DNA of 64,000 nt from an uncultured Acidobacteriaceae bacterium (GCA_963772195.1 CAVYWE010000006.1:39785-103784), one strand, 5' to 3'; positions 8,633 to 52,364 are shown, numbered from the stretch's first letter. Made by a program: numbers and translations. The notes: a model not told the origin generated them from the sequence alone.

Positions 8633-9064
8633 TTAGAAAACACCCAGCCAGCGTACGGGGAAGCGGCTTCCGAGGGCGTTCACCAGGCGCTCGTCGGCGG
8701 TGATGAGTTCAGTCCCAGTGGCAACGGCCATCGCAACGTAAGTGCTGTCGTAAATGGTTCGATCAAAATCGGCGGCAATTTTAAATGCTTCCAGCAGAAA
8801 GGCTCGACTTGGCAACGTCGGAAAGTCGCGATTGAACATTGCTTCTAGCGCGCGCCGGGCCAATGGAGAAGTAATCGCGCCACGCTTTGCCGCTTTCCAG
8901 AGAAAGCTTCCGATCTCGAGCCAGAACAAGTCTGGAACGATCACTTTGATGGTTCCGTCCACATAAGCGCGAAGAAAGCGGTCCGCGCGATCAGCGAGAG
9001 GCTCGATGATCTCGGGCGACGCCCACTTCGCGCCGACGCTGGCATCCATTACGAACGTCTTCAC
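8633..9064 (-). CDS. vapC: PIN-domain toxin, VapC family
   Basis: 143 aa. FVMDASV at the N-terminus, IYDSTYVAMA and LITADERL acidic PIN residues. 4-bp overlap with the upstream antitoxin. Confidence 0.85.
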   Translation of the reverse strand: MKTFVMDASVGAKWASPEIIEPLADRADRFLRAYVDGTIKVIVPDLFWLEIGSFLWKAAKRGAITSPLARRALEAMFNRDFPTLPSRAFLLEAFKIAADFDRTIYDSTYVAMAVATGTELITADERLVNALGSRFPVRWLGVF

Positions 9065-9312
9065 CGCTCGCGGTCCTCACGGATCATCTCTTCTGCCGAA
9101 GGGAACGGCCCCTTGCCGGGAGGCTTGTGCGCTTGAATTTCCCTCAATTCGTCATAGAATTGCCGGCGTCGTTTTAGTTCAGCTGCGGTGGGCACGGTGT
9201 CTTTCAGCATCTCGATCACTTCGGCGGCGATGGAGCTACGGTTCTTTCGGGCGCGGGCGCGCAGGGCTTCATAGAGGTCTTTGGGCACGTTTTCCACGTA
9301 TAGGGTTGGCAT
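9061..9312 (-). CDS. ribbon-helix-helix antitoxin (FitA/VapB-like)
   Basis: MPTLYVENVPKDLYEALRARARKNRSSIAAEVIEML is a typical Arc/FitA-type RHH N-terminus. Overlaps the vapC start. Confidence 0.8.
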   Translation of the reverse strand: MPTLYVENVPKDLYEALRARARKNRSSIAAEVIEMLKDTVPTAAELKRRRQFYDELREIQAHKPPGKGPFPSAEEMIREDRER

Positions 9313-13967: not shown

Positions 13968-14020
13968 AAGTTTCCATTAAGGATAACGGATTCCCGCAGG
14001 ATACAGGTAGGAGAACGACC

Positions 14021-14047
14021 TAAAGCGCAGGATCGAACTGCCGATAT
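14021..14047 (+). promoter_or_regulatory. sigma-28 (FliA)-type promoter upstream of cheY
   Basis: TAAAGCGC, 11 nt, then GCCGATAT. Compare the consensus TAAAGTTT-N11-GCCGATAA. About 75 nt upstream of cheY. Confidence 0.55.
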
Positions 14048-14121
14048 ACATCCAGTGAGTCAGAAAATAGCGGCAGGCGATTTCGTGGTCTGCCCGTGCA
14101 AACCGCAGAGTGGTGGAACCC

Positions 14122-14508
14122 ATGGATAAGATACGAGCGCTCATTGTGGATGACTCCTCGGTGATGCGCAAAATAGTCGAGCGTTCGCTGCGCCAGGCGG
14201 GCATCGAACTGGAAAAGGTTGTGGAAGCCGCCAACGGGGCCGAAGCGCTGGCTGCGTTGCAGAGCAATGTTGTCGACCTCATCCTGTGCGATATCAACAT
14301 GCCGGTCATGGACGGGCTGGAATTTGTCCGTCAGGTCGCCACGGTAGAAACCGCCAAAGGTGTTCCGATCGTCATGATCACCACCGAAGGCAGCGAATCG
14401 CACGTAGTGCAGGCGCTCTCGGCCGGGGCTCGCGGATATATCCGCAAGCCCTTCACTCCCGATCAGGTGAAAGAGCATGTCTTGCCCTTGCTGGGGAAGA
14501 AACCATGA
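14122..14508 (+). CDS. cheY: CheY-like single-domain response regulator
   Basis: ALIVDDSSVMR, phospho-acceptor context LILCDINMPVMDG, ITTEGS, YIRKPF. Confidence 0.85.
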   Translation: MDKIRALIVDDSSVMRKIVERSLRQAGIELEKVVEAANGAEALAALQSNVVDLILCDINMPVMDGLEFVRQVATVETAKGVPIVMITTEGSESHVVQALSAGARGYIRKPFTPDQVKEHVLPLLGKKP

Positions 14509-14987
14509 GTGCCGATGGCGGATTGGCCAGGCGGTCTCACGAGGAGAACTGGCTGCCCATTCTCGAACTTGCGATCCAGGAAGTTTTCGAGATCATGCTG
14601 GGCTGCCAGGTGAAGCCGGTGGCGCCATCCGAGCACGCGGCGAATGCGGAATTCACCGCCATGGTCGGTTTGGCCGGGGCGTTGTGTGGAATTCTGACGG
14701 TCTGCTGCGACGCGAACACCGCCCGCCAGATTGCCACGCGCATGTTGGGGGACGCAGCCAGCTCCGAGGAACAGGCAGCGGATGCGCTCGGAGAGATCTG
14801 CAACATGATCACCGGAAACTTCAAGAACAAGCTGGCGGGCACGGATGAACAATGCATGTTGAGCGTGCCGAGCGTCATCAGCGGCGGGAAGTATAGTTTC
14901 CGCTCGCTGGCCGATGGGGTTTCCATAGAAACCGCCCTGCTGTTTGAGGGGGCGCCGATTTTCGTTCGTCTGCAACTGCACAGCTGA
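14505..14987 (+). CDS. cheX: CheX-like chemotaxis phosphatase (CheC/CheX family)
   Basis: ATG 14505 overlaps the cheY stop (ATGA). LELAIQEVFEIMLG and GEICNMITGNFKN resemble CheX blocks. The upstream part of track ORF 14286..14987 lies inside cheY and is rejected. Confidence 0.7.
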   Translation: MSADGGLARRSHEENWLPILELAIQEVFEIMLGCQVKPVAPSEHAANAEFTAMVGLAGALCGILTVCCDANTARQIATRMLGDAASSEEQAADALGEICNMITGNFKNKLAGTDEQCMLSVPSVISGGKYSFRSLADGVSIETALLFEGAPIFVRLQLHS

Positions 14988-15201
14988 TTCCAGCTAATCC
15001 CAAAAACTCCAAATCTCCTCCAGAAAAGTTTGCCGGGTTTCGCCGGGCAGAGTTTTCCTCGCCGTCAAACTCTAAGACGCTTCCAATGTTTCTACCCCCG
15101 CGGCCACTCCTAAGCGGTTCAGAACAAGGTCCTTTGTGAAAATGTTCCCCATCTCCGTCGTGGCGATTGGCTTGCTTCCTATCCAAGCACAAGGAGCCAA
15201 C

Positions 15202-15951
15202 GTGGACAGCGGATTTTATGCAGCGTGTGCGGGGTTACAAGCGCAAAGCCAGGCGCTTGAAGTGGTGGCGCACAACCTTGCCAATCTGAATACAGCCGGT
15301 TTTCATGGCGACCAGGCGACATTCCAGTCGCTGCTGGCGGTGTCGCGCCCGGCGCTTCCGAATGTCCTTAACCTGGCGACAAACAATTTCGGGGTACTCG
15401 AAGGCACGCATATGGATATGACTGCGGGCAATCTGGAAACGACTGGAAACCCGCTTGATGTGGGAATCGAAGGCGGCGGCTTTTTTGTCATTCAGACCGC
15501 GCGCGGCACACGCTACACCCGCAACGGAAGTTTCCAGGTGTCGAGCAGCGGGGTGCTGGTCACGACGGCGGGCGATCCCGTGTTCGGCGATCCTGCGCTC
15601 GGAGCTAAAGGTGTGATCAACATTCCGGTCGGTCCGGTCTCGATCGCTTCGGATGGGACGCTCTCAGTCAACGGCGCGGTCGCGGGCAGTATCCGGCTGG
15701 TGGAGTTCGCTCCGGGGACGAAGCTCACCCCGGAGGGTCAAACCCTGCTCGCCGCTCCCGAGGGCAGCGCGAAGCTGGCGCTGCAGCCGGCGCTCAGGCA
15801 GGGCGCGATCGAGACTTCGAACGTAAATTCCATCAGTTCGGTGGTGACGCTGATCGGAGTGCAGCGGCAGGCCGAAATGTTGCAGCGCGCCATGACGCTG
15901 TTTGACAACGAATTTAACCGCATTGCCAGCACCGACCTGGCAAAAGTTTAG
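15202..15951 (+). CDS. flgF: flagellar basal-body rod protein FlgF
   Basis: N-terminal rod motif VVAHNLANLNTAGF and C-terminal ETSNVNSISSVVTLIGVQRQAEM. GTG 15202 is preceded by AAGGAG. Confidence 0.85.
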   Translation: MDSGFYAACAGLQAQSQALEVVAHNLANLNTAGFHGDQATFQSLLAVSRPALPNVLNLATNNFGVLEGTHMDMTAGNLETTGNPLDVGIEGGGFFVIQTARGTRYTRNGSFQVSSSGVLVTTAGDPVFGDPALGAKGVINIPVGPVSIASDGTLSVNGAVAGSIRLVEFAPGTKLTPEGQTLLAAPEGSAKLALQPALRQGAIETSNVNSISSVVTLIGVQRQAEMLQRAMTLFDNEFNRIASTDLAKV

Positions 15952-15961
15952 GGAGGAAACC

Positions 15962-16753
15962 ATGTTTCGAGCACTGTACACCGCCGCCAGCGGAATGCAG
16001 GCGCAGCAAATGAATCTGGATACCATTGCCAATAACCTGTCCAACTCCAGCACCGCCGGCTTCCAGAGCCGCCGCATGCAGTTCCAGGATCTGATCTACC
16101 AAAGCATGGTGATGCCGGGTGCGGCCGCCTCCCAGCAAACCACGGTAGCAACAGGCCTGCAGATTGGACTGGGCACGCGCCCGGCCGCCTCCGAAATCAT
16201 TCAGTTGCAGGGCAACATCAATGCGACGGGTAACCCGCTCGATCTGGCCATCGAAGGGCAGGGATTATTTCAGGTGCTGTTGCCGACGGGCGAGACCGCC
16301 TACACGCGCACCGGCGCCTTCCACCAGGACGCGCAAGGCAATGTGGTTACCTCCGACGGGAATCCGCTGCAGCCGGCGGTGACGATACCGGCGGGGGCCA
16401 CTTCGATCACCATCTCACCGGATGGCACTTTGTCGGTCACGCTCGCCGGGCAAACCGCGGCGTAGCAGGTGGGCATCCTGCAACTTGCGCTCTTTCCGAA
16501 TCCCGGCGGATTAAACAGTGTCGGCAAGAATTTGTATCTTGCCACCACCGCTTCGGGAGATCCCGCCGTTGGCACGCCGGGCGGCACCGATGGTTTGGGA
16601 CAGATCGAGCAAGGGTATCTCGAACAGTCGAACGTCAGCGTGGTCGATGAGTTCATCAACATGATCGTGGCGCAGCGTTCCTACGAAGCCAGTTCACGGG
16701 TGGTGGATGCGGCCAATCAAATGTTTCAGCTGGTCAACACCATGGGCAAGTAG
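15962..16753 (+). pseudogene. flgG: flagellar distal rod protein FlgG interrupted by an in-frame TAG
   Basis: Track ORFs 15902..16465 and 16469..16753 are in the same frame and together give a full-length FlgG (IANNLSNSSTAGF ... QGYLEQSNVSVVDEFINMIVAQRSYEA). TAG at 16463-16465 splits it. Confidence 0.8.
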
Positions 16754-16763
16754 AGGGAGCCGA

Positions 16764-17438
16764 GTGATTACGCGATCCATTTTCGCCCGCTTCCTATACG
16801 CCTTCGGAATCCTATTGGGTTCGTTGCTCTTTGCCGGGTTATCGGCCGGACTCTCAGCCGAGGTCTCGGCCGAAGAGTCGCGCCCGCCGCCCGGCACGCC
16901 GCCTACTGCGGCAACCCGGCGGGAAGTGTGGCAGGCGGTGATGGCTGAACTCCAACGAGAAGGGCTGCCGGCACAGCGGTTGCCGCGGATCGAGGATCTC
17001 GAACTGCCGGCGGCTCTCCCGGCGCTTGCTGGACGGAGATTGCGCGTTTCGTCTGCCCGCTGGGACGAGGGGCCTCGACGGACTCAATTCCGCCTGGAAT
17101 GCGGCGAGCCGGGGCAGTGTCTGCCGTTCCTGGTTTACCTCCATGACGCCTATCTCCATAGCTATGTCCGTGACGATCAGAATACGAGCGCGCAAGCCGG
17201 AGCGTGCCGGCCGGCTTCGGAGCCGCGTCGGGCGCCGGAAACCTCGCCGAAACCCGTGTTGCGTGCCGGAGACTGGGCGACGGCGGTATTTCTCTCCAAC
17301 CGTTTGCGGATGACCGCCAGTGTGACTTGTCTGGAGCGAGGCCGCGAAGGCGAAGTCATTCGCGTGCGCAGCCAGGATGGACGCGTTTTCCGGGCGCGGA
17401 TTTCGGGTCCTGCCCGCCTGGAAGTTTTGCCGCAGTAA
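16764..17438 (+). CDS. flgA: flagellar P-ring assembly chaperone FlgA
   Basis: Signal-like N-terminus and C-terminal SAF-type block VLRAGDWATAVF...GREGEVIRVRSQDGRVFRARI. GTG 16764 follows GAGGGAG. Confidence 0.7.
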   Translation: MITRSIFARFLYAFGILLGSLLFAGLSAGLSAEVSAEESRPPPGTPPTAATRREVWQAVMAELQREGLPAQRLPRIEDLELPAALPALAGRRLRVSSARWDEGPRRTQFRLECGEPGQCLPFLVYLHDAYLHSYVRDDQNTSAQAGACRPASEPRRAPETSPKPVLRAGDWATAVFLSNRLRMTASVTCLERGREGEVIRVRSQDGRVFRARISGPARLEVLPQ

Positions 17439-17450
17439 TGAGCAAATGAG

Positions 17451-17516
17451 TAGAGACGGGGCTTGCCCCGTCTCAGGCAGCGCGGCACTGCCGAGACGCG
17501 GCAAGCCGCGTCTCTA
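17451..17516. repeat. GC-rich double hairpin repeat (GTAGAGAC family)
   Basis: tagagacggggcttgccccgtctc ... gagacgcggcaagccgcgtctcta. Two stem-loops whose outer ends also pair. Lies between flgA and flgH. Confidence 0.75.
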
Positions 17517-17572
17517 CCGATGAGAATTCTTGTGAGCATCTGTAGTTAGTAAGTCAACCGAGGAGGACGTAA

Positions 17573-18244
17573 GTGAAAACGGTGCTGTGTTGCCTGCTCC
17601 TGCTGACCGCGGGTTGGCTGAACGCGAAGAAGCGAGAGTCGCAGGACGACAGTCTGGCAAAATATCTTGCCCGTGTCCAGATGGCGCAACCACCCGCGCC
17701 CGCGCTCTCCCTCGGAAGCATTTGGGTGGATTCGGGACGGATGGCGTCTCTCAGCGCCGATTATAAGGCGATGACCACCGGAGACCTGATCACGGTCGTA
17801 GTGGTGCAGGGCGTGACCTCGTCGAATGCCGGCGCTGTGGGCACGGCGCGGACTTTCAACACCAGTTCGGGCATAGATTCGGTGCCCGTCATTGGAGTGG
17901 GAGCGGCCCAGAGCCTGCTGGGACTGCACTCGGCGGAGGCTTTGTCCGGCAAGGGCCAGGCATCTTCAGCTACGAGCCTGACCACAACGCTGGCGGGTCG
18001 AGTGGTCGCCGTTCTGCCGAGCGGCAACCTGGTGGTCGAGGCGGAGCGCATCATCAACATGAAGAAGCAGACCATTGTGTTGCGCGGCATCGTGCGCCGG
18101 GGCGATATCGGACCGAACAATACGGTCGCTTCGAATACCATCGGCGATCTCGAACTGGAGATCAAGGGCAAAGGCGTGATCTCGGACGGGGTGCGGCCGC
18201 CGCATCCGGTGCTGCGCGCCATCCCGCGCATTCTGAATTTTTAG
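17573..18244 (+). CDS. flgH: flagellar L-ring protein FlgH
   Basis: SLGSIWVD..., [43 protein letters not shown] and [12 protein letters not shown] match FlgH blocks. GTG start follows GAGGAGGA. Confidence 0.85.
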
Positions 18245-18257
18245 GAGCCTCATTCCT

Positions 18258-18668
18258 ATGCATATGAAATCCGCTTTCGCCGCCGGTCTTTTTCGGGCAC
18301 TCGTTCTGTTGCTCGTTTTAGCGTCCGCGTTTTCCGGAGCGCTCTCCGCAGCCGAACCGGTGGCGGTTAAAATCCGCGATCTCACCAGCATCGAAGGCGT
18401 GCGGGAAAATCCCCTGATCGGGTACGGCATGGTAGTTGGACTCACCCGTACCGGCGACAGTCAGCAGACCGTATTCACGACCCAGACCCTGGCCAACATT
18501 ATGCAGCGCATGGGCGCGCAGATTCCGGCGGCCACGGCGCGCGTCAACAATGTGGCGTCAGTGTTTGTGACCGCCAGCCTGCCGGCATTCGCGCGGCCCG
18601 GCACGAGCACCGGCGTGAGCAGCATGGCTTCAAAATCCCGCGCCGCCTTTTCAGCCGTAATGATTTGA
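18258..18668 (+). pseudogene. flgI: flagellar P-ring protein FlgI, 5' third only
   Basis: Signal peptide, then [30 protein letters not shown] and [17 protein letters not shown] match FlgI. Similarity ends near 18606 and the ORF stops at 136 aa (FlgI is normally about 365 aa). Confidence 0.75.
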
Positions 18669-18683
18669 GCCGTGATGCGTCAT
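18606..18683 (-). pseudogene. flgJ: inverted fragment resembling the FlgJ rod-binding N-terminus
   Basis: The reverse strand reads ...[19 protein letters not shown], close to the Rod_binding motif (AAxxFEAxFLxxML). An ATG at 18683 is one frame off. The fragment abuts the flgI breakpoint. Confidence 0.35.
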
Positions 18684-18709
18684 GCGGACAAGATGCCCCA
18701 TATTCCCAT

Positions 18710-18737
18710 TAAGGTTCTATTAGGAACCTGCCGATAA
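18710..18737 (+). promoter_or_regulatory. sigma-28 (FliA)-type promoter upstream of flgM
   Basis: TAAGGTTC, 12 nt, then GCCGATAA. About 30-40 nt upstream of the flgM start. Confidence 0.5.
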
Positions 18738-18763
18738 AAGAAGCAGGCGGGGGGAGGTGGCGA

Positions 18764-19093
18764 TTGGAGAAGTTTATGAGAGTCGATTTCACAACATCTG
18801 GAGTGGAACCACCGGAAAAAGGCACGACGGGCCGCGCTGGGCATGCCGAGCCCTCTGGGACTGCGACTGAGGCTGGTGCCGAAGCGAGCAGCATCTCGGG
18901 CGGGGACCAAACCCGCATCTCGTTCGATCAGACGCGGGTGCAGTCGCTCGAAGCACATGTTCTGGCACAGCCTGAAATTCGCGAGGCCAAGGTTCAATCG
19001 CTGCAGCAGGCAATTGGCAATGGCGAATATTCGGTTCCGGCCAGCCAGGTGGCCGAGGCATTGGTCAGCGAATTCGGCGGCGCTAAAGGTTAG
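18764..19093 (+). CDS. flgM: anti-sigma-28 factor FlgM
   Basis: C-terminal VQSLEAHVLAQPEIREAKVQSLQQAIGNGEYSVPASQVAEAL matches the FlgM sigma-28-binding region. Start is TTG 18764 or ATG 18776. Confidence 0.75.
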   Translation: MEKFMRVDFTTSGVEPPEKGTTGRAGHAEPSGTATEAGAEASSISGGDQTRISFDQTRVQSLEAHVLAQPEIREAKVQSLQQAIGNGEYSVPASQVAEALVSEFGGAKG

Positions 19094-19112
19094 CGGAAGT
19101 GAGCCATAGTGT

Positions 19113-19176
19113 GAACTCTGGAAAGAACTAGAGCGAACTATAGGGCGAACTAAAGGGGGAACTACAGAGCGAATTA
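19113..19176. repeat. tandem ~12-nt GAACT-containing repeat (6 units)
   Basis: GAACT recurs at 19113, 19125, 19135, 19147 and 19159, with GAATT at 19171 (gaactagagc gaactatagggc gaactaaagggg gaactacagagc). Confidence 0.6.
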
Positions 19177-19398
19177 TGGATCCGTTGATCACGAACGGGA
19201 TCGAACCGGTGATGCTGCGCGGGTTGGAGAAGCGGGCCGATGAGCGTGACCCGGTGCCCCGGGTGCAAGCGTCCGGCTGTTCGCATGAAAACGGTCGGAG
19301 CAGAGAAAGAATATAAAGAAGGGCCAGGACTCGACATTTCGCGGCACTAACTGGATAACCTGGCTTGATCGCAATAACGATCTAATCTGACGATCTGG

Positions 19399-19441
19399 TC
19401 TGAACTTTGGACACTGAGCTCTGAACTCTGAACTCTTGAAC
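19399..19441. repeat. TCTGAAC 7-nt tandem repeat
   Basis: tctgaac at 19399, then tctgaac tctgaac tcttgaac at 19420..19441, just upstream of the flgN remnant. Confidence 0.5.
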
Positions 19442-19458
19442 GAAGACGCGGTTCTTTT

Positions 19459-19632
19459 ATGGATAACATCGAGACATCGCTTCCCGAACTCAGCAAGCTC
19501 ATCGAGCAGCGGCTCGCGCTGTTGCGCAGCCTGGCGAAGAGTCTGGAGTTCAGCAGCCTGGCGCTGGTGCAAAACGATGCGGAAGCAATCGCGCGCGGCG
19601 CGGCGCATCAGGCAGAGCTCTGCCGGCAATGG
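19459..19632 (+). pseudogene. flgN: FlgN-like chaperone, N-terminal ~58 codons only
   Basis: LPELSKLIEQRLALLRSLAKSLEFSSLALVQNDAEAIARGAAHQAEL fits the FlgN N-terminal helix pattern. After about 19632 the frame reads nonsense over flgL sequence. Confidence 0.5.
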
Positions 19633-20261
19633 AGCCTTCCATTAGCCTTGGCGTCGAGGGCGGCAACGGCACGCTCTCCGCCACCGACCGGGCCTCAATC
19701 GTCAATGAACTGCAAGGCATTCAGGGCCAGCTTGTTTCCCTGGCCAACAGTTCGTACGAGGGCCGCTACGTGTTCGCCGGCACCAATACCAACACGCCGT
19801 CGTTCGTTCTCGACAATGCCGCCCCCTCGGGCGTCCGCTATGTCGGCAACACTGATGTCAATCAGGTATCGATCGGCAATGGAAACACGCTTGCCGTCAA
19901 CCAGCCCGGATCGCACATGTTTTCCGCTCCTGGCAACGACGTTTTTCTCGCCATCAACAACGTCATCCAGTCCGTGCAGTCCAACACCGGCGTTGCTGCC
20001 GCCGTCGTCGCATTAGGCGGAGCAAACAGCTATCTTTCGGCGCAGCGCGTGTTCTATGGCAACGCCCTGAACCAGGCGCAGTCGCAATCCACCTACCTCA
20101 ATGCCGCCAAACTTCAAATTGCCCAGCAGCAGAACACGCTTGGCGGCGCGGATCTCGCTACCGCCGCCACCGATCTCTCCCGATCCCAGATCGACACCCA
20201 AGCCACGCTGGCCACCATCAGCAAGCTCACGCAGAATAATCTCTTCAGTTACCTGAAGTAG
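19629..20261 (+). pseudogene. flgL: hook-filament junction protein FlgL lacking its N-terminal ~90 residues
   Basis: GNGTLSATDRASIVNELQGIQGQLVSLANSSYEGRYVFAGT and the C-terminal flagellin-like LSRSQIDTQATLATISKLTQNNLFSYL match FlgL. The conserved N-terminal helix is absent. Confidence 0.7.
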
Positions 20262-22301: not shown

Positions 22302-22350
22302 GTAGAGACGGGGCTTGCCCCGTCTTGCCTGCCCCGTCACGCGCGGTGAC
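22302..22350. repeat. GC-rich hairpin repeat (GTAGAGAC family)
   Basis: gtagagacggggcttgccccgtct followed by gtcacgcgcggtgac. The first hairpin is identical to the one at 17451. Confidence 0.7.
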
Positions 22351-22352
22351 GA

Positions 22353-22763
22353 CTAGTTCTTAAACGGGTTGAAGGTCCGGACGTCGAGTTGCGTAAAGTC
22401 CCGTTCATTCCTGGTCGCAACAATCAGACGATGGACCCTTGCTGTCGCGGCGATCATGGCGTCTTGCAGCAACTCAGGGGGCTTCTTGTCCATAATGCGG
22501 CCCCATTCCCGGAAGCACGCCGTATCCATGGGGAGCACCTGATAGGACGCGGGCAACCGATCAATCCAACGCTCGATCTCGCTCGCTTTCGCCGGATCTT
22601 GACGTCTTGCCCGCTCGATGCCCGCCTGCAGTTCTCCTAATGTGACCGCGGAGAGTACCAACCTCCCCTCTTCCATGGCGCTGATCCAGGCGACCACCGC
22701 TCCGTGGGGGCGCGTTTTCCGCAGTTCCGAGATTACGTTCGTATCGAGCAGGTATTGATTCAC
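22353..22763 (-). CDS. vapC: PIN-domain toxin, VapC/FitB-like
   Basis: YLLDTNVISELRK N-terminus, LSAVTLGELQAGI, DAMIAATARVHRLIVATRNERDF. 4-bp overlap with the antitoxin. Confidence 0.85.
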   Translation of the reverse strand: MNQYLLDTNVISELRKTRPHGAVVAWISAMEEGRLVLSAVTLGELQAGIERARRQDPAKASEIERWIDRLPASYQVLPMDTACFREWGRIMDKKPPELLQDAMIAATARVHRLIVATRNERDFTQLDVRTFNPFKN

Positions 22764-23017
22764 TCAAACTCCACCACGGGACGGCTGCGCAACTTGCGCC
22801 TTTCCAAGATCAGGTCGTCAAAGCGAGGCTCGGGTGCGAGCAACCATTCCTTGAGACTAGGCCTGGCCGCCTTTTGGAGCCTCTCCCATTCTTCGATCGG
22901 CACCAGAACGGCGGTCTTAACTCCGCGTCGGGTCACAACTTGCGGACCCTTCTTGATGGCCGCGTCCAGTAATTCACTAAAGCGCGCTTTTGCGTCTTGC
23001 ACCTGCCAGGAAGCCAA
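22760..23017 (-). CDS. Phd/YefM-family antitoxin
   Basis: WQVQDAKARFSELLDAAIKKGPQVVTRRGVKTAVLVPIEEWERL is the Phd/YefM N-terminal fold signature. Confidence 0.85.
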   Translation of the reverse strand: MASWQVQDAKARFSELLDAAIKKGPQVVTRRGVKTAVLVPIEEWERLQKAARPSLKEWLLAPEPRFDDLILERRKLRSRPVVEFE

Positions 23018-23106: not shown

Positions 23107-23174
23107 AGATGGGCCTTGCCCGTCTTGCCAGCGCCTATTACGCGCCGCGGTGCGAGACGCGGCGAGCCGCGTCA
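23107..23174. repeat. GC-rich hairpin repeats (GTAGAGAC family, degenerate)
   Basis: gatgggccttgcccgtc and gacgcggcgagccgcgtc stem-loops in the divergent intergenic region. Confidence 0.55.
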
Positions 23175-23263
23175 CTAGAGTAAATGTGATAAAAAATACT
23201 GTAATGTCTCGTAATACTGATGACAGCCTCTGGCAGCCTTAACCCGCAAAAATCAGGTGCAAC

Positions 23264-25218: not shown

Positions 25219-25270
25219 GTAGAGACGCGGCTTGCCGCGTCTCCCCCCGCGAAGACGGAAGCACCGTCTC
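25219..25270. repeat. GC-rich hairpin repeat (GTAGAGAC family)
   Basis: gtagagacgcggcttgccgcgtctc followed by agacggaagcaccgtct, between convergent genes. Confidence 0.7.
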
Positions 25271-40220: not shown

Positions 40221-40520
40221 TTACCGCCAGGAACGAGTCATGTAGTCCGCCAGCGACAGTATGAGCAGAATTGCGAGAAAGAAGAAGCCGGAGACAACGA
40301 CGGCCCCGGTCAGCTTTTCGCTCGCGCCTTTGACGTGCATGAAGAAAAGGATGACCAGCGTCGCTTTGATGGTGGCGATGAGGAGCGCGACAACCGGGTT
40401 GAAGGGACCGAGGTTCACAAAGGCGACCGCGGCCGTCGTGATAGTCAGGACGAGCAGGGTAATACCGATCGCTATGTAAAAGCCTTGCGAGTGACCAGTG
40501 TGTTCTTCGTGTTCCGACAT
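40221..40520 (-). CDS. ctaF: cytochrome c oxidase subunit IV (prokaryotic CtaF/COX4_pro type)
   Basis: 99 aa with three TM helices. IATIKATLVILFFMHV motif. Last gene of the oxidase operon. Confidence 0.8.
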   Translation of the reverse strand: MSEHEEHTGHSQGFYIAIGITLLVLTITTAAVAFVNLGPFNPVVALLIATIKATLVILFFMHVKGASEKLTGAVVVSGFFFLAILLILSLADYMTRSWR

Positions 40521-40528
40521 AACAGTCC

Positions 40529-41212
40529 TTAAGAGTGCCTGCTAATCAGGTACAACAACGGGAACAGATAAATCCAGATGATATCGACCAAGTGCCAGTA
40601 CAAGCCGGCATTTTCTATGGGCGTGAAGTAACCGGGCGTGTAATGTCCTTTCCATGCCAGGACAGTCAGAACGCTGAACAGGCCGCATCCAATGATCATG
40701 TGCAGGGCGTGCATACCGGTCATGACGAAATAGAGGGAGAAAAAAAGCTCAGCTTCCTTCGGGTTGACCGGGATTTGCTTGCCGTTGTCGTCGAACTTAT
40801 CCGTGAAGTTGAACGTGGCGCCGGGTACGTGATGCTTCTCGAATTTTTCCTTGTACTCGAAACCCTTGATGACGAGGAAGGTCATGCCGAGCAGCACCGT
40901 AACCACGAGGTAGCCGACCAGCACTTTGCGTTTGCCCGCTTCCGCCGCTTTCACCGCCAATACAACCGTAACCGAACTAACGATCAGGACGCCGGTGTTA
41001 GTGGCTCCGAGCCAGATATTGAGCTGCTGGCTTCCGGCCGCGAAGGCGTTGAAGTGGGCGAGGCGATAGATGAGGTAGGCGCAGAACATGCCGCCGAAGA
41101 ACATGATTTCAGTCACCAGGAACAGCCACATGCCAAGCGAGGCGGCGTTCTTCTGTTGCTGAGCGTCGGCGAAGTGGTGGAGCAGCGCCGGATTGTGCGC
41201 TTCGTGTTCCAT
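40529..41212 (-). CDS. ctaE: cytochrome c oxidase subunit III
   Basis: GMWLFLVTEIMFFGGMF and FFSLYFVMTGMHALHMIIG...YWHLVDIIWIYLFPLLY. Start set to ATG 41212, downstream of the ctaD stop. Confidence 0.9.
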   Translation of the reverse strand: MEHEAHNPALLHHFADAQQQKNAASLGMWLFLVTEIMFFGGMFCAYLIYRLAHFNAFAAGSQQLNIWLGATNTGVLIVSSVTVVLAVKAAEAGKRKVLVGYLVVTVLLGMTFLVIKGFEYKEKFEKHHVPGATFNFTDKFDDNGKQIPVNPKEAELFFSLYFVMTGMHALHMIIGCGLFSVLTVLAWKGHYTPGYFTPIENAGLYWHLVDIIWIYLFPLLYLISRHS

Positions 41213-41249
41213 GACCGTAGCTTGGGTCGTGACTTGGGTCGTCACTTGG

Positions 41250-42908
41250 CTATCCTGCAACGGGAGCCTCCAGTTCCTTGGGTGGAATCTCGTCGTAGTT
41301 ATAGGCTTCCCAGGTGACGACCGGCGTCTCGTCAAAATTAAATGTAGGCGGCGGCGACGTGGTTTGCCACTCCAGGCCAGCGGCGCCCCAGGGATTTGCC
41401 TCGGCGATGGGCCCGTAGCGCAGCGACCAGAGCAAGTAGATCATCGGCAGCAGATAGCCGACTGCGAGGATGCTGGCGCCAGCTGTCGAGAGCACGTTCA
41501 GCACCTGAAACTCGGGCGGATACTGCCAGTAGCGGCGCGGCATGCCGACGTAGCCAAGGATGAATTGCGGGAAGAACGTCAGGTTGAAGCCGACGAAAAC
41601 GAACAGCGCCGAAAGTTTGGCCCAACCTTCCGGATACATGCGCCCGCTGATCTTCGGCCACCAGAAATGCAGCCCTCCCAGATATCCCATAAGTACGCCG
41701 CCGACCATGACGTAGTGGAAGTGGGCGATGACGAAGTAGGTGTCGGTGACGTGAACGTCGATGCCGATGGTGGCCAGTATGAGTCCGGTTAATCCGCCGA
41801 TGGTGAACAGTCCGATAAAACCAAAGGCATAGAGCATCGGCGTGGCGTACGAGATCGAACCCTTGTAAAGCGTGGCTGTCCAGTTGAAGACTTTGACGGC
41901 GGAGGGCACGCCCACGAGGAAGCTCAGGAGGGAAAAGACCAATGCGGCATAGAGCGATATGCCGGCGACGAACAAGTGATGCGCCCACACCAGGAATCCG
42001 AAGACGGCGATGGCGACGCTCGACATAGCGACAAACTTGTAGCCGAACACGCGTTTACGCGCGAAGCAGGCAACGAGCTCGCTGATCACTCCCATCGAAG
42101 GCAGGATCATGATGTAGACGGCAGGATGGGAGTAAAACCAGAACAGGTGCTGGAACAAGACCGGGTCTCCGCCCAGACTGGGATCGAAGATGCCGAGGTG
42201 GAAGAGGCGCTCGACCGTCACAAGTACCATTGTGATGGCAATCACCGGCGTACCGAGAATCATGATCAAGCTGGTGGCGTAGTTAGCCCAGATGAAGAGC
42301 GGGAGGCGGTCCCACGTAAGGCCGGGCGCGCGCATGCGATGAACGGTGACGATGAAATTGAGTCCAGTAAAGATGGACGAAAACCCCGCGATGAAGATGG
42401 CGAGTCCGGCTTCGACGACGTTGGTGTTGCTGCCAGCCGTGCTGTATGGAGTATAAAAAGTCCATCCGGTATCGACGCCGCCGGTCAACATGCAGTGCAG
42501 GAAGAGCACGCCGCCTATGACGTAGAGATACCAGCTCAGCAGGTTGATACGAGGAAAAGCGAGATCCTTGGCCCCGATCATGAGGGGCACCAGGAAGTTG
42601 CCGAGTATAGCAGGTACGACCGGGATCAGGAAGAAGAACACCATGACTATGCCGTGCATGGTGAATACCTTGTTATAGGTGTCAGCCTGCAGAAGGTCGC
42701 CCTGCGGAGTAAGCAGTTCAAGCCGGATGAGCATGGCAAAGAAGCCACCGAGCATAAAGAAGGCAGTAACCGAGATCAGATAAAGAATCGCGATCCGCTT
42801 GTGGTCGGTAGTCAGCAGCCAGGACTTGAGGCTGCTCCCGTTGTTGAGATAGTTCAGCTTCGGAGGCTGATTCGCCGGGATTGCTGTGCTCGCTGCTTTG
42901 CTCGCCAT
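41250..42908 (-). CDS. ctaD: cytochrome c oxidase subunit I (heme-copper oxidase A-type)
   Basis: [34 protein letters not shown] heme/CuB ligand contexts. Confidence 0.95.
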
Positions 42909-42910
42909 GA

Positions 42911-43909
42911 CTATTGCACCTGCGTCTTCTGGGGTTGTGCCGGGGAAGGGGCAGGCTGGTCTTGCAGCCCGGCGGTTCCCGTGGGTGGCTGGCTTAACGA
43001 TTTGACATAGGCCACCAGCGCGTTCAACTGTTCGTCGCTAATGATGCCCTGGAAAGTTGGCATCACAGGTTTGAAACCCTTCACGATCTTTGCGGTGGGA
43101 TCGAGGATGGACTCACGAACATAGTTCTCATCGGCGATCACCGTGCGTCCATCTTCGAGCAGAACCGGTTTGTTGTAGACACCGATCAGATTGGGGCCGC
43201 GCCCTTGGACGTCGGAACGATGGCAGGTAACGCATCCGAGCGAAGCGAACAACTGCTTGCCGGTTTCCTGCAAGGGGGCGGACGGTCCGCCGGACATCCA
43301 CTGCGCGTAATCCTGCGGCGCCATGACGATGATATCGCCGCCCATTCCAGAGTGCTGGGTTCCGCAATACTCGGCGCAGAATAAATGATAGCGGCCGGGC
43401 TTGGTGGCATTGAACCAGAGCGTGGTGTAGCGGCCCGGCAGCACGTCCTGCTTGATGCGGAATGCGGGGATGAAGAAGCTGTGAATCACGTCCTGCGAGG
43501 TCATGATGAGCTTAACGTTCTGGCCGGTGGGGACGTGGAGCTCGTTGATTTCACGCTGCCCCTCCATGTGCTCGATCTTCCACATCCATTGTTTAGCAAC
43601 GACATAGACTTCGGTCGCGTTTGCGGGAGGAGTGCGCTCCTCGAAAAATATGACTGCGCCCCAGATGAAGAAAGTCAGCATCACAAAGAAGGGAATGACG
43701 GACCAACTGATTTCAAGGACGGTGGAGCCTTCGATCGGATGGGCATCGCGGCCGGGCACGCGACGATACTTAATCGCCAGTACCGCGACCGAAATAAAGA
43801 TGAGCGCGGTCATGAGGCCTGAAACCAGCAGCAGATAGATGTAGAGCGCATCCACCTGGCTTGCCATGGTCGAGGCCTGATCGGGCCACAAAGGTAGAAA
43901 TTTCGACAT
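42911..43909 (-). CDS. ctaC: cytochrome c oxidase subunit II with fused C-terminal cytochrome c (caa3 type)
   Basis: CuA site HSFFIP...[12 protein letters not shown] and C-terminal heme-c site CVTCH. Confidence 0.9.
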
Positions 43910-43911
43910 AA

Positions 43912-44823
43912 TTAAGTAACTCGCCCCAATTCGCGGTCCGCGCGCTGATCGGCAAGTCGAGCAAAACGACGATCGGCGCGGAACATAACGAACATAAATG
44001 TTCCCAGAATGAGCATGGTAGCCAGCCCCGCCAGCTTCAGGATATTGCTGATGATAGCGCCGTATTTCCCAGTCCTGGGATCGTAGTGATAGCAGTAAAG
44101 AAGTACCTGGTCGCCGATGTTACCAATCCGGTTTTGCGAGGCCTGCACCAATCCCAGGCGCAGATCCTTGGGAGGGAACTCGACTCCATAAAAGTATCCC
44201 GAAATGTGGTGGTCGGGTGTGAGCATAACGATCGCGGCGGCGTGGGCGTATTGCTCAGTTTTCGGATCGAACTGATATTCGAAGCCGACCGATTTGGTGA
44301 GCGCATTGATCTGGTCAGCCTTGCCAGTGAGGAAGTGCCAACCTTGATCGGCGTTCGCGCGGCCATAGCGCTTGATGATGTCCCGCTTTTTTGCGGCAGC
44401 CATTTCCGTGGTCTCACGCGGGTCGAAGCTCACGGTGACGACGTCGAAATCCTTGCCGAGATCGAAGGTCAACGCCTTCATCGAACCGACCAAGCCTTGC
44501 AGAAGTTCGCTGCAGAGCATAGGACACTGGTAGTAACCCAGGTTCAGAATGACGGGGCGTCCGTGGCCGAAGTAGTCGGCGAGTTTGACCGGATTGCCGA
44601 GTTCGTCGCGGAATTCCAGATCGGCGGGAACTTGGGCATTGAGATGTTGCTCGATGCCGACGAATTGGAGTCCCGGGGGCCGCTGGCTGGCAGGCGGAGT
44701 CATGATGCCGCCCATCATAGGACCGCGAGCGCCCTGTGCTGAGACAAGCACCGGGGCGACCGAGAGCATGAGCAGCAAAATTGCCACGGTTGTCGAATTG
44801 GCGAAACTGCGTTTACTTCGCAC
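43912..44823 (-). CDS. SCO1/SenC-family copper chaperone
   Basis: Thioredoxin-fold CxxxC (YYQCPMLCSE) and a conserved His region. N-terminal signal/anchor plus a C-terminal TM helix. Confidence 0.85.
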   Translation of the reverse strand: MRSKRSFANSTTVAILLLMLSVAPVLVSAQGARGPMMGGIMTPPASQRPPGLQFVGIEQHLNAQVPADLEFRDELGNPVKLADYFGHGRPVILNLGYYQCPMLCSELLQGLVGSMKALTFDLGKDFDVVTVSFDPRETTEMAAAKKRDIIKRYGRANADQGWHFLTGKADQINALTKSVGFEYQFDPKTEQYAHAAAIVMLTPDHHISGYFYGVEFPPKDLRLGLVQASQNRIGNIGDQVLLYCYHYDPRTGKYGAIISNILKLAGLATMLILGTFMFVMFRADRRFARLADQRADRELGRVT

Positions 44824-45349
44824 TGCCTTTTCCCTTTCCAGCGGACTTCACGACGGCCGCTTTGCTTTCCGTCGCATTTGCATCCACGCCGCTTTGCGGA
44901 TACACGGGCAATCCGCGCTGGACGGTCAACTCCATGGCGCGCTCAATCGGAATGTGCGCCACGCCAGCTTTTTCGTCGACCCAGCCGTAGCTGTTGAGTT
45001 GGCCTTCCTGATCCATCAGGAAGTCGCGAAACTGGCCGCGCTCATTGGTTTCGAGCATGGGCGCGCCGTTTTCCTTGAACAGTTTGTCGACGTCGTCCTG
45101 CGTCATCACACGCTCCATCGCACCTGACGACGAAACCAACGGACTTGCGGTAGTCATCTGCGACCGCTCGTATTTATCGAGGAACGAATACATGCCGACG
45201 ATGATGAAATAGATGACGACGCCACTGACCACGAGCCCAATCATGAAGGCGAAGATGCCACGCGTGCCCAGGTCTTCATGTTCGAACTCGGTTTCGTGGG
45301 CGGGGTGGCCTTGATTCAAGGGACCACTGTTCATCATATCGTCACTCAT
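44813..45349 (-). CDS. hypothetical single-TM protein between ACIII and SCO genes (ActG-position)
   Basis: 178 aa. One TM helix (IFAFMIGLVVSGVVIYFIIVGMY), then a soluble domain. Overlaps the SCO start by 11 bp. No family recognised. Confidence 0.55.
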   Translation of the reverse strand: MSDDMMNSGPLNQGHPAHETEFEHEDLGTRGIFAFMIGLVVSGVVIYFIIVGMYSFLDKYERSQMTTASPLVSSSGAMERVMTQDDVDKLFKENGAPMLETNERGQFRDFLMDQEGQLNSYGWVDEKAGVAHIPIERAMELTVQRGLPVYPQSGVDANATESKAAVVKSAGKGKGSAK

Positions 45350-45355
45350 ATCTCG

Positions 45356-46564
45356 TCACTCATGCGACCGCTCCAGAAGTCTCAGCGTCTGCGGTGCGTT
45401 GACGGGCAGCAGCGGACGCGATCTCAGGTTGTAAAAGAAGTAGGCCATCCAAAGACCGCCGATGCCGGCGATGATCGTGAAATGCAGCCAGCTGAGGTGA
45501 AACGTGGGATGCGCCGACGGTTCGATATGCCAAAAGATATCGACGATGCGCATGAAGATGAGCCATGAAGCGATCCGAACCAGAGTGCGCGCTTTACGCT
45601 TCAACTGGCGCGAGAGCAACAGCGCGAACGGCACGGCGAAGTGGAACACCACAAGGAACAGCCCAACCGTCTCCCATCCGCCATGCAGGCGGCGCACGTA
45701 CCACGGAATTTCCTCGGGCAGGTTGCCGGCCCAAATAATGAGCCACTGCGAGAAATTGAAGTAAGCCCAGACCATGACAAAGGCGAGCATGAGCTTGCCG
45801 TGATCGTGGACTTCGGTATCCGTGAGGTACTCGGACATCGGCTTGCGCTTGCCGAGGATGCTCTCGATCACCACGACAAAGCAGAAGGCGGAAAGCGCTT
45901 CACCTGCGACAAAGAGCAGGCCGTAGATAGTCGAGATCCAGCGCGCTTGCAACGACATCACCCAGTCGATCACAGCGAACGAAATCGTCAGCGAGTAGAT
46001 GACAAGTCCGATGGAGCTCATGGCGCGGAAACGCAGCGTACTCTGGCCCGCAATCGAGTCCTGCTCGGTGGACCACCGATTCAGGAAGTATGCCATCCCA
46101 AACCAGATGGCGAAGTAGAGAATGTAGCGCAGCAGGATGCCGTTGAAGTTCAGGTAGCTGTGCGCGATCTCCAGTATCTTTGGGTCGGTCTTTGGATCGG
46201 CTAGTACTTCGGGGCGAGCCCAGAAATAGAGCCTGGGGAGGTGCAGCAAAATCGGGATAAAGAGGACGAACATGAGGGGCAGCGTCATCATGCCCGACTC
46301 CAGTATGCGGCGAATTACGGTGCCCCAGGCGCCGCCGACCAGGTGGTAAAGCATCAGGATGGCCATGCATCCAAGCGAAAGGCCGAGCCAGAACATGAAG
46401 CCAATGAGGTAGGCGGAATAAAAACTGCCGGGAGCAAGGAAAGCGCCGGCGACGGAAACAACGGCAGCGATCGCGCCAATGACAAGCGACCGCTGTTGGA
46501 TGGTCTGGGCCACGGGCGGCGCCATCAGGTCTGACTTATTCACCTTCACTGTGGCCGTGGTCAT
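45356..46564 (-). CDS. actF: alternative complex III subunit ActF (NrfD-like membrane subunit 2)
   Basis: Polytopic membrane protein following ActE. ATG 46564 overlaps the ActE stop (ATGA). The track ORF extension to 46735 lies inside actE and is rejected. Confidence 0.8.
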   Translation of the reverse strand: MTTATVKVNKSDLMAPPVAQTIQQRSLVIGAIAAVVSVAGAFLAPGSFYSAYLIGFMFWLGLSLGCMAILMLYHLVGGAWGTVIRRILESGMMTLPLMFVLFIPILLHLPRLYFWARPEVLADPKTDPKILEIAHSYLNFNGILLRYILYFAIWFGMAYFLNRWSTEQDSIAGQSTLRFRAMSSIGLVIYSLTISFAVIDWVMSLQARWISTIYGLLFVAGEALSAFCFVVVIESILGKRKPMSEYLTDTEVHDHGKLMLAFVMVWAYFNFSQWLIIWAGNLPEEIPWYVRRLHGGWETVGLFLVVFHFAVPFALLLSRQLKRKARTLVRIASWLIFMRIVDIFWHIEPSAHPTFHLSWLHFTIIAGIGGLWMAYFFYNLRSRPLLPVNAPQTLRLLERSHE

Positions 46565-47223
46565 TTGGGCTCCCCTCCGGCTTCGGTGGCAGGCGGCGCG
46601 ATTTCGGGCAGCGTTGCTCCATTGCCAATGTCGCGGAACTGCGGCGGGGGTGACGGAACTTTTTGTCCCGCAGGAATTTCGGCCGACGTTGCATTCTGGC
46701 TCAGTTGCAGCGCGCGGATGTAGGCGGCGATGCACCAGCGATCGCGCGGCGCGACTTGCGCGGCGTAGTCGGGCATAACGCCGAAGCCATTAGTGTCGAC
46801 GTCGAAGAGATAGCCGATCGGTGCTTTGCGCAGGCGGTCGATGTGAAACGACGGGGGCTGGCGGAAGCCTCGCGTGGGGATGAAGCCCTTGCCATCGCCA
46901 ACGCGTCCGTGGCAAGGCGTGCAAGTGATGTTGTAACGCTCGCGTCCGCGTGCAAGAACTTCGGCGGTCACCGGGAACGGCATGTAGTCGCCGGGATTGC
47001 CGCCGATTTTCCCGGTGTAGAAGTAGGTGTCCTCGCGGAGATCGCCGCGTGCGACCGTGCCCTCGACCGGCAAACGGGCAGAGCGGTCGTCAGCGAAAAA
47101 CTCGCTCTTCGCCAGCGGCCGGTAATACGGCTGGATGTGCATGTCGATCCGGCATCCCGCGGTAATGGCGATCAGCGCCAGAAGTGCGGGCAGAACTTTT
47201 CGGAGGTTTAGCGCAGTACCCAT
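46561..47223 (-). CDS. actE: alternative complex III monoheme cytochrome c ActE (lipoprotein)
   Basis: Lipobox LIAITAGC and a single CTPCH heme site, with a downstream Met (GFGVMPDY). Confidence 0.8.
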   Translation of the reverse strand: MGTALNLRKVLPALLALIAITAGCRIDMHIQPYYRPLAKSEFFADDRSARLPVEGTVARGDLREDTYFYTGKIGGNPGDYMPFPVTAEVLARGRERYNITCTPCHGRVGDGKGFIPTRGFRQPPSFHIDRLRKAPIGYLFDVDTNGFGVMPDYAAQVAPRDRWCIAAYIRALQLSQNATSAEIPAGQKVPSPPPQFRDIGNGATLPEIAPPATEAGGEPK

Positions 47224-47225
47224 GG

Positions 47226-47792
47226 CTAGCTTGGCACCTCCGCGATCATGCGTGGAGCCAGGCCCGTGAGAAACGAGCGCGTGCGGGCGGCGTCATATTT
47301 CGGGTCGCTCGAAAACACGATCAGGAAGAATTTATTGTCAGATGCTTTGGCGAACTCGGGCACGTTGAACACCGGGTGATACGGCATGGGAAGGCCGTTC
47401 AGGGCAAGCATGCCGATAACGGCGGAAAGTCCGCCGAACAGAATCGTTAGCTCGAAGGTCACGATGATAAACGATGGCCAGGAGTGAAATGGGCGTCCGC
47501 CAACATTGGTTGGATAGGTGATCGCCGCCACCCAATACTGAAGAGAATATGCCGATATCCCACCAATGAGCGCGCCAATGAGGACAACAAGGGGCACGCG
47601 GTTCTTATGAAAGCCGATGGCTTCGGCAAGGCCCTCGATCGGGAACGGGCTGTAGGCGTCGATCTTCTGGTAGCCCGCTTCGTGAGTCTTGTGAGCGGCG
47701 GCGACCAGTTCTTGCGCCGAATCGAATTCGGCCATCAAGCCGTAGATCGAAGCATCGCGGACGGGAGATTCATAGGTGGAAGAATCGCTCAT
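47226..47792 (-). CDS. actD: alternative complex III subunit ActD (DUF3341)
   Basis: IYGLMAEFDSAQELVAAAHKTHEAGYQKIDAYSPFPIEGL, then two TM helices. Overlaps the actC stop. Confidence 0.8.
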   Translation of the reverse strand: MSDSSTYESPVRDASIYGLMAEFDSAQELVAAAHKTHEAGYQKIDAYSPFPIEGLAEAIGFHKNRVPLVVLIGALIGGISAYSLQYWVAAITYPTNVGGRPFHSWPSFIIVTFELTILFGGLSAVIGMLALNGLPMPYHPVFNVPEFAKASDNKFFLIVFSSDPKYDAARTRSFLTGLAPRMIAEVPS

Positions 47793-49180: not shown

Positions 49181-49198
49181 TCCTTACGTGCGCTCCAC

Positions 49199-52303: not shown

Positions 52304-52364
52304 CGTCGATCTTCAGATCTCATCATCATCCCGGATCCCGGCGCATCGCGATTTCCGCCCGCCG

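Follow-up and report, generated by a model that had tools for sequence, protein, structure and literature searches.

Flagellar loss by pseudogenisation is a well-known process, described mostly from host-adapted pathogens and laboratory lines, and flagellar pseudogenes have been recognized in recently non-motile lineages such as Shigella, Yersinia pestis, Burkholderia mallei, Bordetella pertussis, and Salmonella Gallinarum/Pullorum. Deletion-driven loss of motility has also been described in experimentally evolved Campylobacter jejuni (PMC7677240). In the present study, we analyzed a stretch of 64,000 nucleotides from an uncultured Acidobacteriaceae bacterium (GCA_963772195.1, CAVYWE010000006.1:39785–103784; hereafter designated the window), in which a flagellar and chemotaxis locus occupies positions 14021–20261. 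This locus, a flgF-to-flgL cluster with cheY and cheX upstream, has very probably been caught early in pseudogenisation in an uncultured Terriglobales/Acidobacteriaceae lineage. Like the cases of the non-motile pathogens and C. jejuni, it is a syntenic cluster disabled by a few independent deletions and a point nonsense mutation, with open neighbouring genes and with lesions that vary between close strains. Unlike the pathogens and laboratory lines, the bacterium is a free-living uncultured acidobacterium of soil or peat, the junctions are without an insertion sequence (IS) element, and one of the lesions combines an inversion with a deletion and has kept an inverted scrap. Literature searches gave no report specific to flagellar decay in Acidobacteria.

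The genome was viewed through the window alone, and relatives were collected by a FlgH scan of species-representative genomes, which yielded 73 loci, nearly all from metagenome-assembled genomes (MAGs) of Terriglobales/Acidobacteriaceae from peat and soil, the best being 88% identical; comparison with these related loci places the source lineage among the uncultured Terriglobales/Acidobacteriaceae of soil or peat. The same cluster is intact in about 70 related genomes of this group, with which the window locus is collinear, and the nucleotide identity to intact relatives such as L002 (DATFVD010000301, the closest) and L004 (PKUV01000158) is 85–89%. According to tblastn searches with the L002 proteins, the relatives carry essentially full-length cheY-cheX-flgF-G-A-H-I-J-M-N-K-L, the intact lengths in L002 being 226 aa for flgH, 375 for flgI, 104 for flgJ (rod-binding protein), 109 for flgM, 158 for flgN, 455 for flgK, and 295 for flgL. 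In the window, Pfam assignments and synteny confirm the order cheY-cheX-flgF-G-A-H-I′-(inverted flgJ scrap)-flgM-flgN′-flgL′ that a first-pass annotation had recognized, all Pfam hits in the locus lying above the gathering thresholds except that of Flagellin_N in the truncated FlgL (22.7 bits; cutoff, 26.6). Gene order, flanking genes, and positions of the promoters of the sigma-28 type are the same as in the intact clusters of L002 and L004, compared with which the window is without flgI codons 117–375, flgJ, the distal flgM promoter, the flgN 3′ end, flgK, and the flgL 5′ end, and additionally has a TAG codon in flgG and a two-codon deletion in flgH.

Alignment with orthologous flg loci, which the first-pass annotation had proposed as a check, was carried out and shows exactly which segments the window has lost. 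Thus, by blastn, window 14020–18605 is collinear with L002 6419–11030, window 18604–18653 corresponds to L002 12004–11955 in inverted orientation, window 18662–19639 is again collinear with L002 12235–13134, and the sequence from 19641 onward is collinear with L002 from 15074 onward; the three lesion positions named beforehand (16463, 18606, and 19632) were correct within a few bases. The tblastn coverage of the L002 orthologs is 26% for FlgI, 71% for FlgL, and 52% for FlgN, whose true homology is confined to the first 59 codons, and searches with the intact L002 proteins detected neither FlgJ nor FlgK in the 64-kb window, nor a copy of any of the missing flagellar parts elsewhere in it. The set of genes for the rod, the P and L rings, and the hook-filament junction is therefore incomplete in the window, with flgI, flgN, and flgL truncated, flgJ and flgK absent, and flgG interrupted by a stop codon. 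The lack of flgBCDE upstream of flgF, previously counted among the lesions, is also real; however, it is not a lesion, because the same layout is found by tblastn in all relatives and represents an ancestral, conserved architecture.

The first of the two deletions (lesion 1) affects flgI and flgJ. Only codons 1–116 of 375 remain of flgI (18258–18605, + strand); homology to all relatives stops at 18605, the fragment matches only positions 1–88 of 343 in the Pfam FlgI profile, and the open reading frame (ORF) continues to 18668 through antisense flgJ DNA. The earlier description of flgI as ending after about a third of its normal length thus holds for the extent of homology, whereas the event itself is a complex rearrangement (inversion plus deletion) and not a simple truncation. 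The loss comprises flgI codons 117–375 (924 bp; the last 69%), flgJ save 50 inverted bp, and about 230 bp on the right. The remaining piece of flgJ, indeed a short inverted scrap as had been noticed, lies at 18606–18653 on the − strand and encodes 16 residues; its blastn match to L002 and other relatives spans 50 bp (18604–18653) in reverse, with 92–98% identity to several of them. A 2-nt CG microhomology is seen at the left junction, and the right junction contains a filler at 18654–18663, consisting of GCCGTAAT (18654–18661) and two more bases, as defined by alignment with L002 and a metagenome contig described below (L075). Moreover, the segment 18649–18663 (TTTCAGCCGTAATGA) is a near-duplicate of 18664–18677, for which Tandem Repeats Finder reported a period of 15 with 1.9 copies at 18649–18677. 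Lesion 1 also took the −35 part of the distal sigma-28-type site (TAAAG-N15-GCCGATCT), which is found just after flgJ in the relatives. Public protein data contain eight distinct 136-aa variants of the truncated FlgI (FlgI′), all with a junction-encoded tail ending in [SF]RAAFSAVMI and some with altered conserved residues.

The second deletion (lesion 2) removed 1939 bp, namely the flgN 3′ end, flgK, and the first 84 codons of flgL. The flgN remnant (19459–19636, + strand) retains the first 59 codons of about 158, close to the ~58 codons counted at first reading, and its frame then runs out of register over flgL to a stop at 20016, giving an ORF at 19459–20016. At the junction (19637–19640), a GAGCC microhomology is followed by a TTCC filler, both flanks having been aligned with 10–15 relatives each, and the flgL remnant (19641–20261, + strand) encodes residues 85–295 of 295, with a chance ATG at 19629 that opens a 210-aa ORF. 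Pfam detects only positions 93–139 of Flagellin_N, plus Flagellin_C, in this remnant, and the exact 210-aa product (FlgL′) is present on three other contigs. The absence of flgK had been noted before and was verified both by tblastn over the 64-kb window and by the deletion of the whole block relative to the relatives. A single 1.9-kb deletion by illegitimate recombination joined flgN codon 59 to flgL codon 85 and removed flgK.

Complex rearrangements are known to arise from replication template switching of the microhomology-mediated, fork-stalling type. The window resembles such products in having 2–5 nt of microhomology, a small inverted segment between deleted stretches, and a filler that nearly duplicates the adjacent sequence, and the junction alignments revealed no IS element at either deletion. 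Judged from this anatomy, both lesions carry the signatures of illegitimate or template-switch events, and a rearrangement, probably of the replication type, destroyed flgI from codon 117 on together with flgJ, leaving the inverted scrap and the near-duplicated filler. The likeness is one of junction anatomy only, and a two-step process of inversion and then deletion, hinted at by another contig (L094, see below), fits equally well; in the simplest view, lesion 1 would have begun as an inversion between flgI and flgJ, with a deletion coming later.

Independent metagenome assemblies with about 96–100% identity to the window reproduce both deletion junctions exactly. Thus, the locus with both lesions is spanned by contigs L078 (JGI 3300006893; 9.0 kb, 97.8% identity) and L079 (ENA ERZ27245849; 98.9%), both junctions are spanned by L076 (JGI 3300077816; 99.0%, no gaps), L077 (Logan ERR10755940; 100%) begins precisely at 18605 and covers lesion 2, and L075 (JGI 3300078045) also has lesion 2. 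Lesion 1 is carried by the window, L076, L078, and L079, and lesion 2 by 6/6 sequences covering the site, with an identical junction sequence in all five contigs. Since the junctions are identical in independent contigs, the two deletions are real alleles and not assembly artefacts; they occur naturally, in a lineage that is found widely among soil metagenomes. In a scan of metagenomes with the 30-mer just left of the lesion 1 junction, 13 of the 15 contigs found run into an intact flgI, with flanks 84–93% identical, and the other two have the junction. Comparison of the window with the Logan contigs L001, L077, and L081 revealed no mismatch over a 4.7-kb overlap. No interruption was seen in the longest ORFs of the window (936–1138 aa), and the remaining ORFs that were scanned had Pfam matches, the lesions being specific to the flagellar locus. 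Exact-protein look-ups gave matches for FlgH, FlgL′, and CheX, and none for FlgI′, both flgG halves, the first FlgF start, and one FlgA start in an index lacking some products or using other start codons. Collectively, the claim that the flagellar/chemotaxis locus carries several independent inactivating lesions is supported by the about 70 intact loci and by near-identical contigs with the same junctions.

In addition to the deletions, flgG (15962–16753, + strand) contains, as first reported, an in-frame TAG at 16463–16465, which is codon 168 of 263, both halves lying in one frame. The corresponding codon in 60 relatives is a sense codon in every case (CAG in 48, CAA in 10, and TCG in 2; Gln in 58/60), and FlgG is 263 aa long in 54/54 relatives checked; the TAG therefore represents a C>T change in a conserved CAG (Q168*). 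L078 and L079, in which both deletions are present, have CAG and an intact 263-aa FlgG. Because these two sister contigs have an intact flgG, the TAG is a very recent change unless, as seems less likely, it is a base error; we regard it as probably real and as the youngest lesion. The window's own 125,801-bp contig is the sole recorded source of the split flgG ORFs (167 and 94 aa), and the 25-mer of the TAG allele was absent from the JGI metagenome contigs scanned. Outgroup polarization assigned three flgG changes to the window, S117T, Q168*, and S172I, which lie within 165 bp and of which none is synonymous. Recoding of the TAG was considered and rejected, because TAG terminates flgM and flgL in the same locus and is thus an ordinary stop codon here.

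The remaining genes, all on the + strand, are open. They comprise cheY (14122–14508; 128 aa, Pfam Response_reg E 8e-31, 100% coverage of and 96% identity to the L002 ortholog), which has no private changes at conserved sites; cheX (14505–14987; 160 aa, Pfam CheX E 5e-23), whose protein is identical on six contigs of other samples; flgF (15202–15951; 249 aa, GTG start, Pfam rod-protein domains), with the commonest length among the relatives; flgA (16764–17438; 224 aa, Pfam ChapFlgA, 100% coverage of the L002 ortholog); flgH (17573–18244; 223 aa); and flgM (18776–19093; 105 aa, Pfam FlgM E 1e-12, 100% coverage of the L002 ortholog). The first-pass annotation had described these six genes as full length; flgH has a strain-private deletion of two codons in an invariant motif. 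In the motif INMN[NH]EKQ, FlgH of the window is without two residues (deletion after 18062) and has an E>K change beside the gap, whereas 41/41 other sequences keep both residues. According to outgroup polarization, the deletion and E>K, together with L218P, are derived in the window lineage, and the site is backed by the Logan contig L001 (ERR12036779), which is 100% identical over 17490–18413. A 6-bp difference at 17690 was rejected as a second FlgH deletion in the window, being an insertion in L078/L079 within a variable linker.

Against L002, L004, and L008, the open genes show ordinary pairwise ratios of nonsynonymous to synonymous substitution rates (dN/dS) of 0.05–0.5, and their rate of private substitution at positions with 95% or higher conservation is within the range of the relatives, although the counts are small. 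By contrast, the flgL remnant has private changes at 7/56 conserved sites, exceeding all 51 relatives (maximum 0.108). The flagellar changes that followed the split within the deleted group amount to roughly 10 nonsynonymous and 8 synonymous (omega about 0.4), which is suggestive but underpowered. Neither pairwise dN/dS nor private-change counts clearly show relaxed selection on the surviving genes, in a setting of little divergence and single-nucleotide polymorphisms clustered in apparent recombination tracts. Because the surviving genes are without a clear excess of damaging changes, the decay appears to be recent. The lesions are younger than the split from the relatives (about 84–93% identity in the flanks) and older than the 1–4% diversification of the deleted group. 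The dN/dS of the open genes, the private-change rates, and this divergence bracketing support the proposal, made from the sequence at the outset, that the locus reflects recent loss rather than an ancient remnant.

Contigs that carry only some of the lesions bear on the order of events. L075 has lesion 2 in combination with an intact flgJ and flgI 3′ end, which lie in a tract that differs from the window by about 7% (L075 675–1170 corresponding to window 18673–19160), and in L076 a diverged tract beside the lesion (L076 1–250; window 18322–18560) is identical to the intact strain L092. These two contigs are otherwise about 99.8% identical to the window, the 6–7% diverged tracts abutting the lesions, which suggests either that deleted and intact lineages often undergo homologous recombination with each other or that the assemblies are strain mosaics. 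L094 (JGI Ga0209733_1024931; 1612 bp, corresponding to window 17192–18653) has a left junction identical to the window's and an flgI′ 99.2% identical to that of L078, and at least 263 bp of inverted DNA follow in it, extending past the flgJ start as far as the flgI stop codon. L094 might represent an inversion-only precursor or, equally, a graph chimera formed via the shared 50-bp node; if it is the former, lesion 1 was an inversion followed by a deletion. L079 (8178–8475) departs from the window at 20033 within the flgL remnant, into unrelated DNA encoding MSEVISTDRISAHTAS that has no match in the window, and this departure may reflect an additional rearrangement in the strain or chimerism at the end of the contig.

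The promoters of the sigma-28 type, predicted from the sequence as TAAA-N15-GCCGATAA-like motifs at conserved positions upstream of late flagellar and chemotaxis genes, remain in place. One lies upstream of cheY (14021–14047, + strand; TAAA-N15-GCCGATAT), with an equivalent about 101 nt upstream of cheY in 48/53 related loci, and the other is the proximal promoter of flgM (18710–18737, + strand; TAAG-N16-GCCGATAA, in which GCCGATAA is exact). Both had been described as near consensus, which agrees with their presence and conservation in the relatives; the exact sigma-28 consensus gave no match, and the sites were found by one-mismatch and relaxed searches. At least one such site precedes flgM in 60/60 relatives and two in tandem in 47/60, whereas the window and L078 keep the proximal one only. 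The relaxed search detected no sigma-28-type site upstream of flgF, flgH, flgN, or flgK.

The previously noticed GC-rich repeat hairpin between flgA and flgH (17450–17517) was confirmed as a very stable compound fold (dG −61.3 kcal/mol, z −5.3) in which a dispersed, REP-like palindromic repeat is present twice. The 22-nt GC-rich palindrome (GAGACGCGGCAAGCCGCGTCTC and variants) occurs at 17453–17474, 17493–17514, 22305–22326, 23154–23175, and 25222–25243, that is, as eight strand-matches at five window sites against none expected by chance, forming a REP-like intergenic family; the hairpin is thus a REP-like repeat unrelated to the decay. Tandem arrays are also present in the flgM-flgN spacer, at 19129–19177 (TAGAGCGAACTA ×4.1) and 19399–19441 (TCTGAAC ×6), and window 19081–19170, which covers most of the TAGAGCGAACTA array, gave no blastn alignment to L002.

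The roles of FlgI in the P ring, FlgJ as the rod cap, FlgK and FlgL in the hook-filament junction, and FlgN as the chaperone of the latter two, as well as the export of FlgM, are established by Salmonella and Escherichia coli genetics. Without these five proteins, a complete hook-basal body and filament could not be assembled, and by analogy with flgI, flgJ, flgK, and flgL mutants of model organisms, flagellar function would be lost. In the absence of a completed hook-basal body, the intact FlgM would be retained inside the cell, where it would hold sigma-28 inactive; expression of the other genes behind sigma-28-type promoters would then be low, which would shield them from selection and allow their decay to go further. 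Several points weigh against this interpretation. Loss of motility is deduced here from 64 kb, a stretch with no fliA gene, and not from fliA, fliC, motAB, flhA, flgBCDE, or the fli genes. Some relatives may carry a second flg cluster, as two flgH-containing clusters, with 72% and 53% identity to FlgH of the window (L032 and L059), both come from the MAG CAVPUZ01 (MFD00008.bin.2.117). The TAG in flgG is carried by one assembly only, the dN/dS of the deleted group is barely raised (about 0.4 vs about 0.25) in an underpowered comparison, and the order of events depends on L075 and L094, short metagenome contigs in recombining or mosaic regions, either of which could be an assembly chimera.

Four alternatives to decay of a flagellar cluster were weighed on this background. 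That the lesions are assembly or base-calling artefacts and the real cluster is intact is suggested by the origin of the window from a metagenome-derived contig, by the inverted 50-bp piece, which is a structure that graph assemblers can make, and by the restriction of the TAG to the window's contig, where three private flgG changes fall within 165 bp; yet the recurrence of both junctions, base for base, in the three JGI contigs (3300006893, 3300077816, and 3300078045), ENA ERZ27245849, and Logan ERR10755940, the eight FlgI′ variants, the 100% identity to the Logan contigs over 4.7 kb, and the uninterrupted long ORFs make this highly improbable. It is rejected for the two deletions and survives for the single TAG base only. 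Still more remote, to the point of being negligible, is the notion that the inverted flgJ piece belongs to a reversible site-specific inversion switch for flagellar phase variation. Although the 50-bp segment is inverted relative to all relatives and a longer inverted segment exists in L094, the 924 bp and 230 bp flanking the retained piece are deleted, which is irreversible, the junctions have 2-nt microhomology only and no inverted repeats at the breakpoints, and the neighbouring ORFs scanned are housekeeping genes whose Pfam hits include no recombinase family.

The two other alternatives accept the lesions as real. The organism might be flagellated through a second, complete flg cluster supplying FlgI, FlgJ, FlgK, FlgL, and FlgN, and the derivation of both L032 and L059 from the MAG CAVPUZ01 indicates that duplicate clusters may exist in the family, reflecting a true second flagellar system in some Acidobacteriaceae or else a contaminated bin. 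However, none of the missing genes is in the 64-kb window, L032/L059 are the only same-MAG pair noticed among the 73 loci (no systematic check was made) and could be contamination of the bin, and a cell that relied on a paralogous set would have no cause to preserve the rest of this copy and its synteny; we thus consider a compensating cluster improbable. Slightly less probable again is the retention of cheY, cheX, flgF, flgA, flgH, and flgM for a non-motility role in signalling, secretion, or envelope structure, with the locus being remodelled and not decaying. In its favour, these genes are open in all members of the deleted group without excess private changes at conserved sites, and the sigma-28-type promoters are intact. 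Nevertheless, because little time has passed since the deletions (about 1–4% group divergence), intact ORFs are expected even without selection, and the window strain has already been hit in flgG by the nonsense change and in flgH by the deletion in the invariant motif, with 3/3 flgG changes altering the protein. Early pseudogenisation of a formerly complete cluster accordingly remains the reading that we prefer.

A different population setting for the same lesions was also considered, in which flagellate and non-flagellate genotypes coexist and exchange DNA in one soil acidobacterial population and the lesions segregate semi-independently by homologous recombination. We hold this to be unlikely, with an appreciable residual chance. 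Its hints are lesion 2 together with an intact flgJ in L075, the junction beside an intact-strain flgI tract in L076, the inversion-only-like allele of L094, and the break of L077 exactly at the junction, as expected with both alleles in one sample. If true, the locus would reflect a standing motility polymorphism held by a trade-off (cost, phage, or predator pressure) and not one-way decay.

Elsewhere in the window, an ORF at 596–1456 has a partial match to an IS1-type transposase (profile positions 85–121 of 131 only) and is likely an IS remnant. Toxin-antitoxin-like pairs lie at 8633–9312 (a PIN-domain ORF with a small ORF following and overlapping it) and, just downstream of the flagellar locus, at 22353–23017 (a PIN-domain gene and a Phd/YefM antitoxin gene). 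A respiratory block at 40221–53060 encodes cytochrome c oxidase subunits IV, III, I, and II and SCO1/SenC, as well as Alternative Complex III-like genes for ActD, an NrfD-like protein, an Fe-S protein, and a multihaem cytochrome, and unlike the flagellar locus, it showed no in-frame interruption in the ORFs scanned. In two relatives, about 4.8 kb of extra DNA lies between a conserved 148-aa gene and cheY (L004 1730–6594 and L058 1245–5961), which is found neither in the window nor in most relatives. An additional deletion of the window between the upstream gene and cheY was therefore considered and dropped, as most relatives are without this DNA and L003 is collinear with the window.

Collectively, the locus adds a further example of a process already well known, the apparent loss of the flagellum by a bacterium, here in an abundant uncultured soil and peat lineage in which the steps are visible as intact relatives, a possible inversion intermediate, deleted alleles in many samples, and one strain that has been hit further. 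It offers a small natural time series for the gene decay of a large machine after a key part has been lost, and it also calls for caution, in that the presence of flg genes alone is unsafe for scoring motility in such MAGs.

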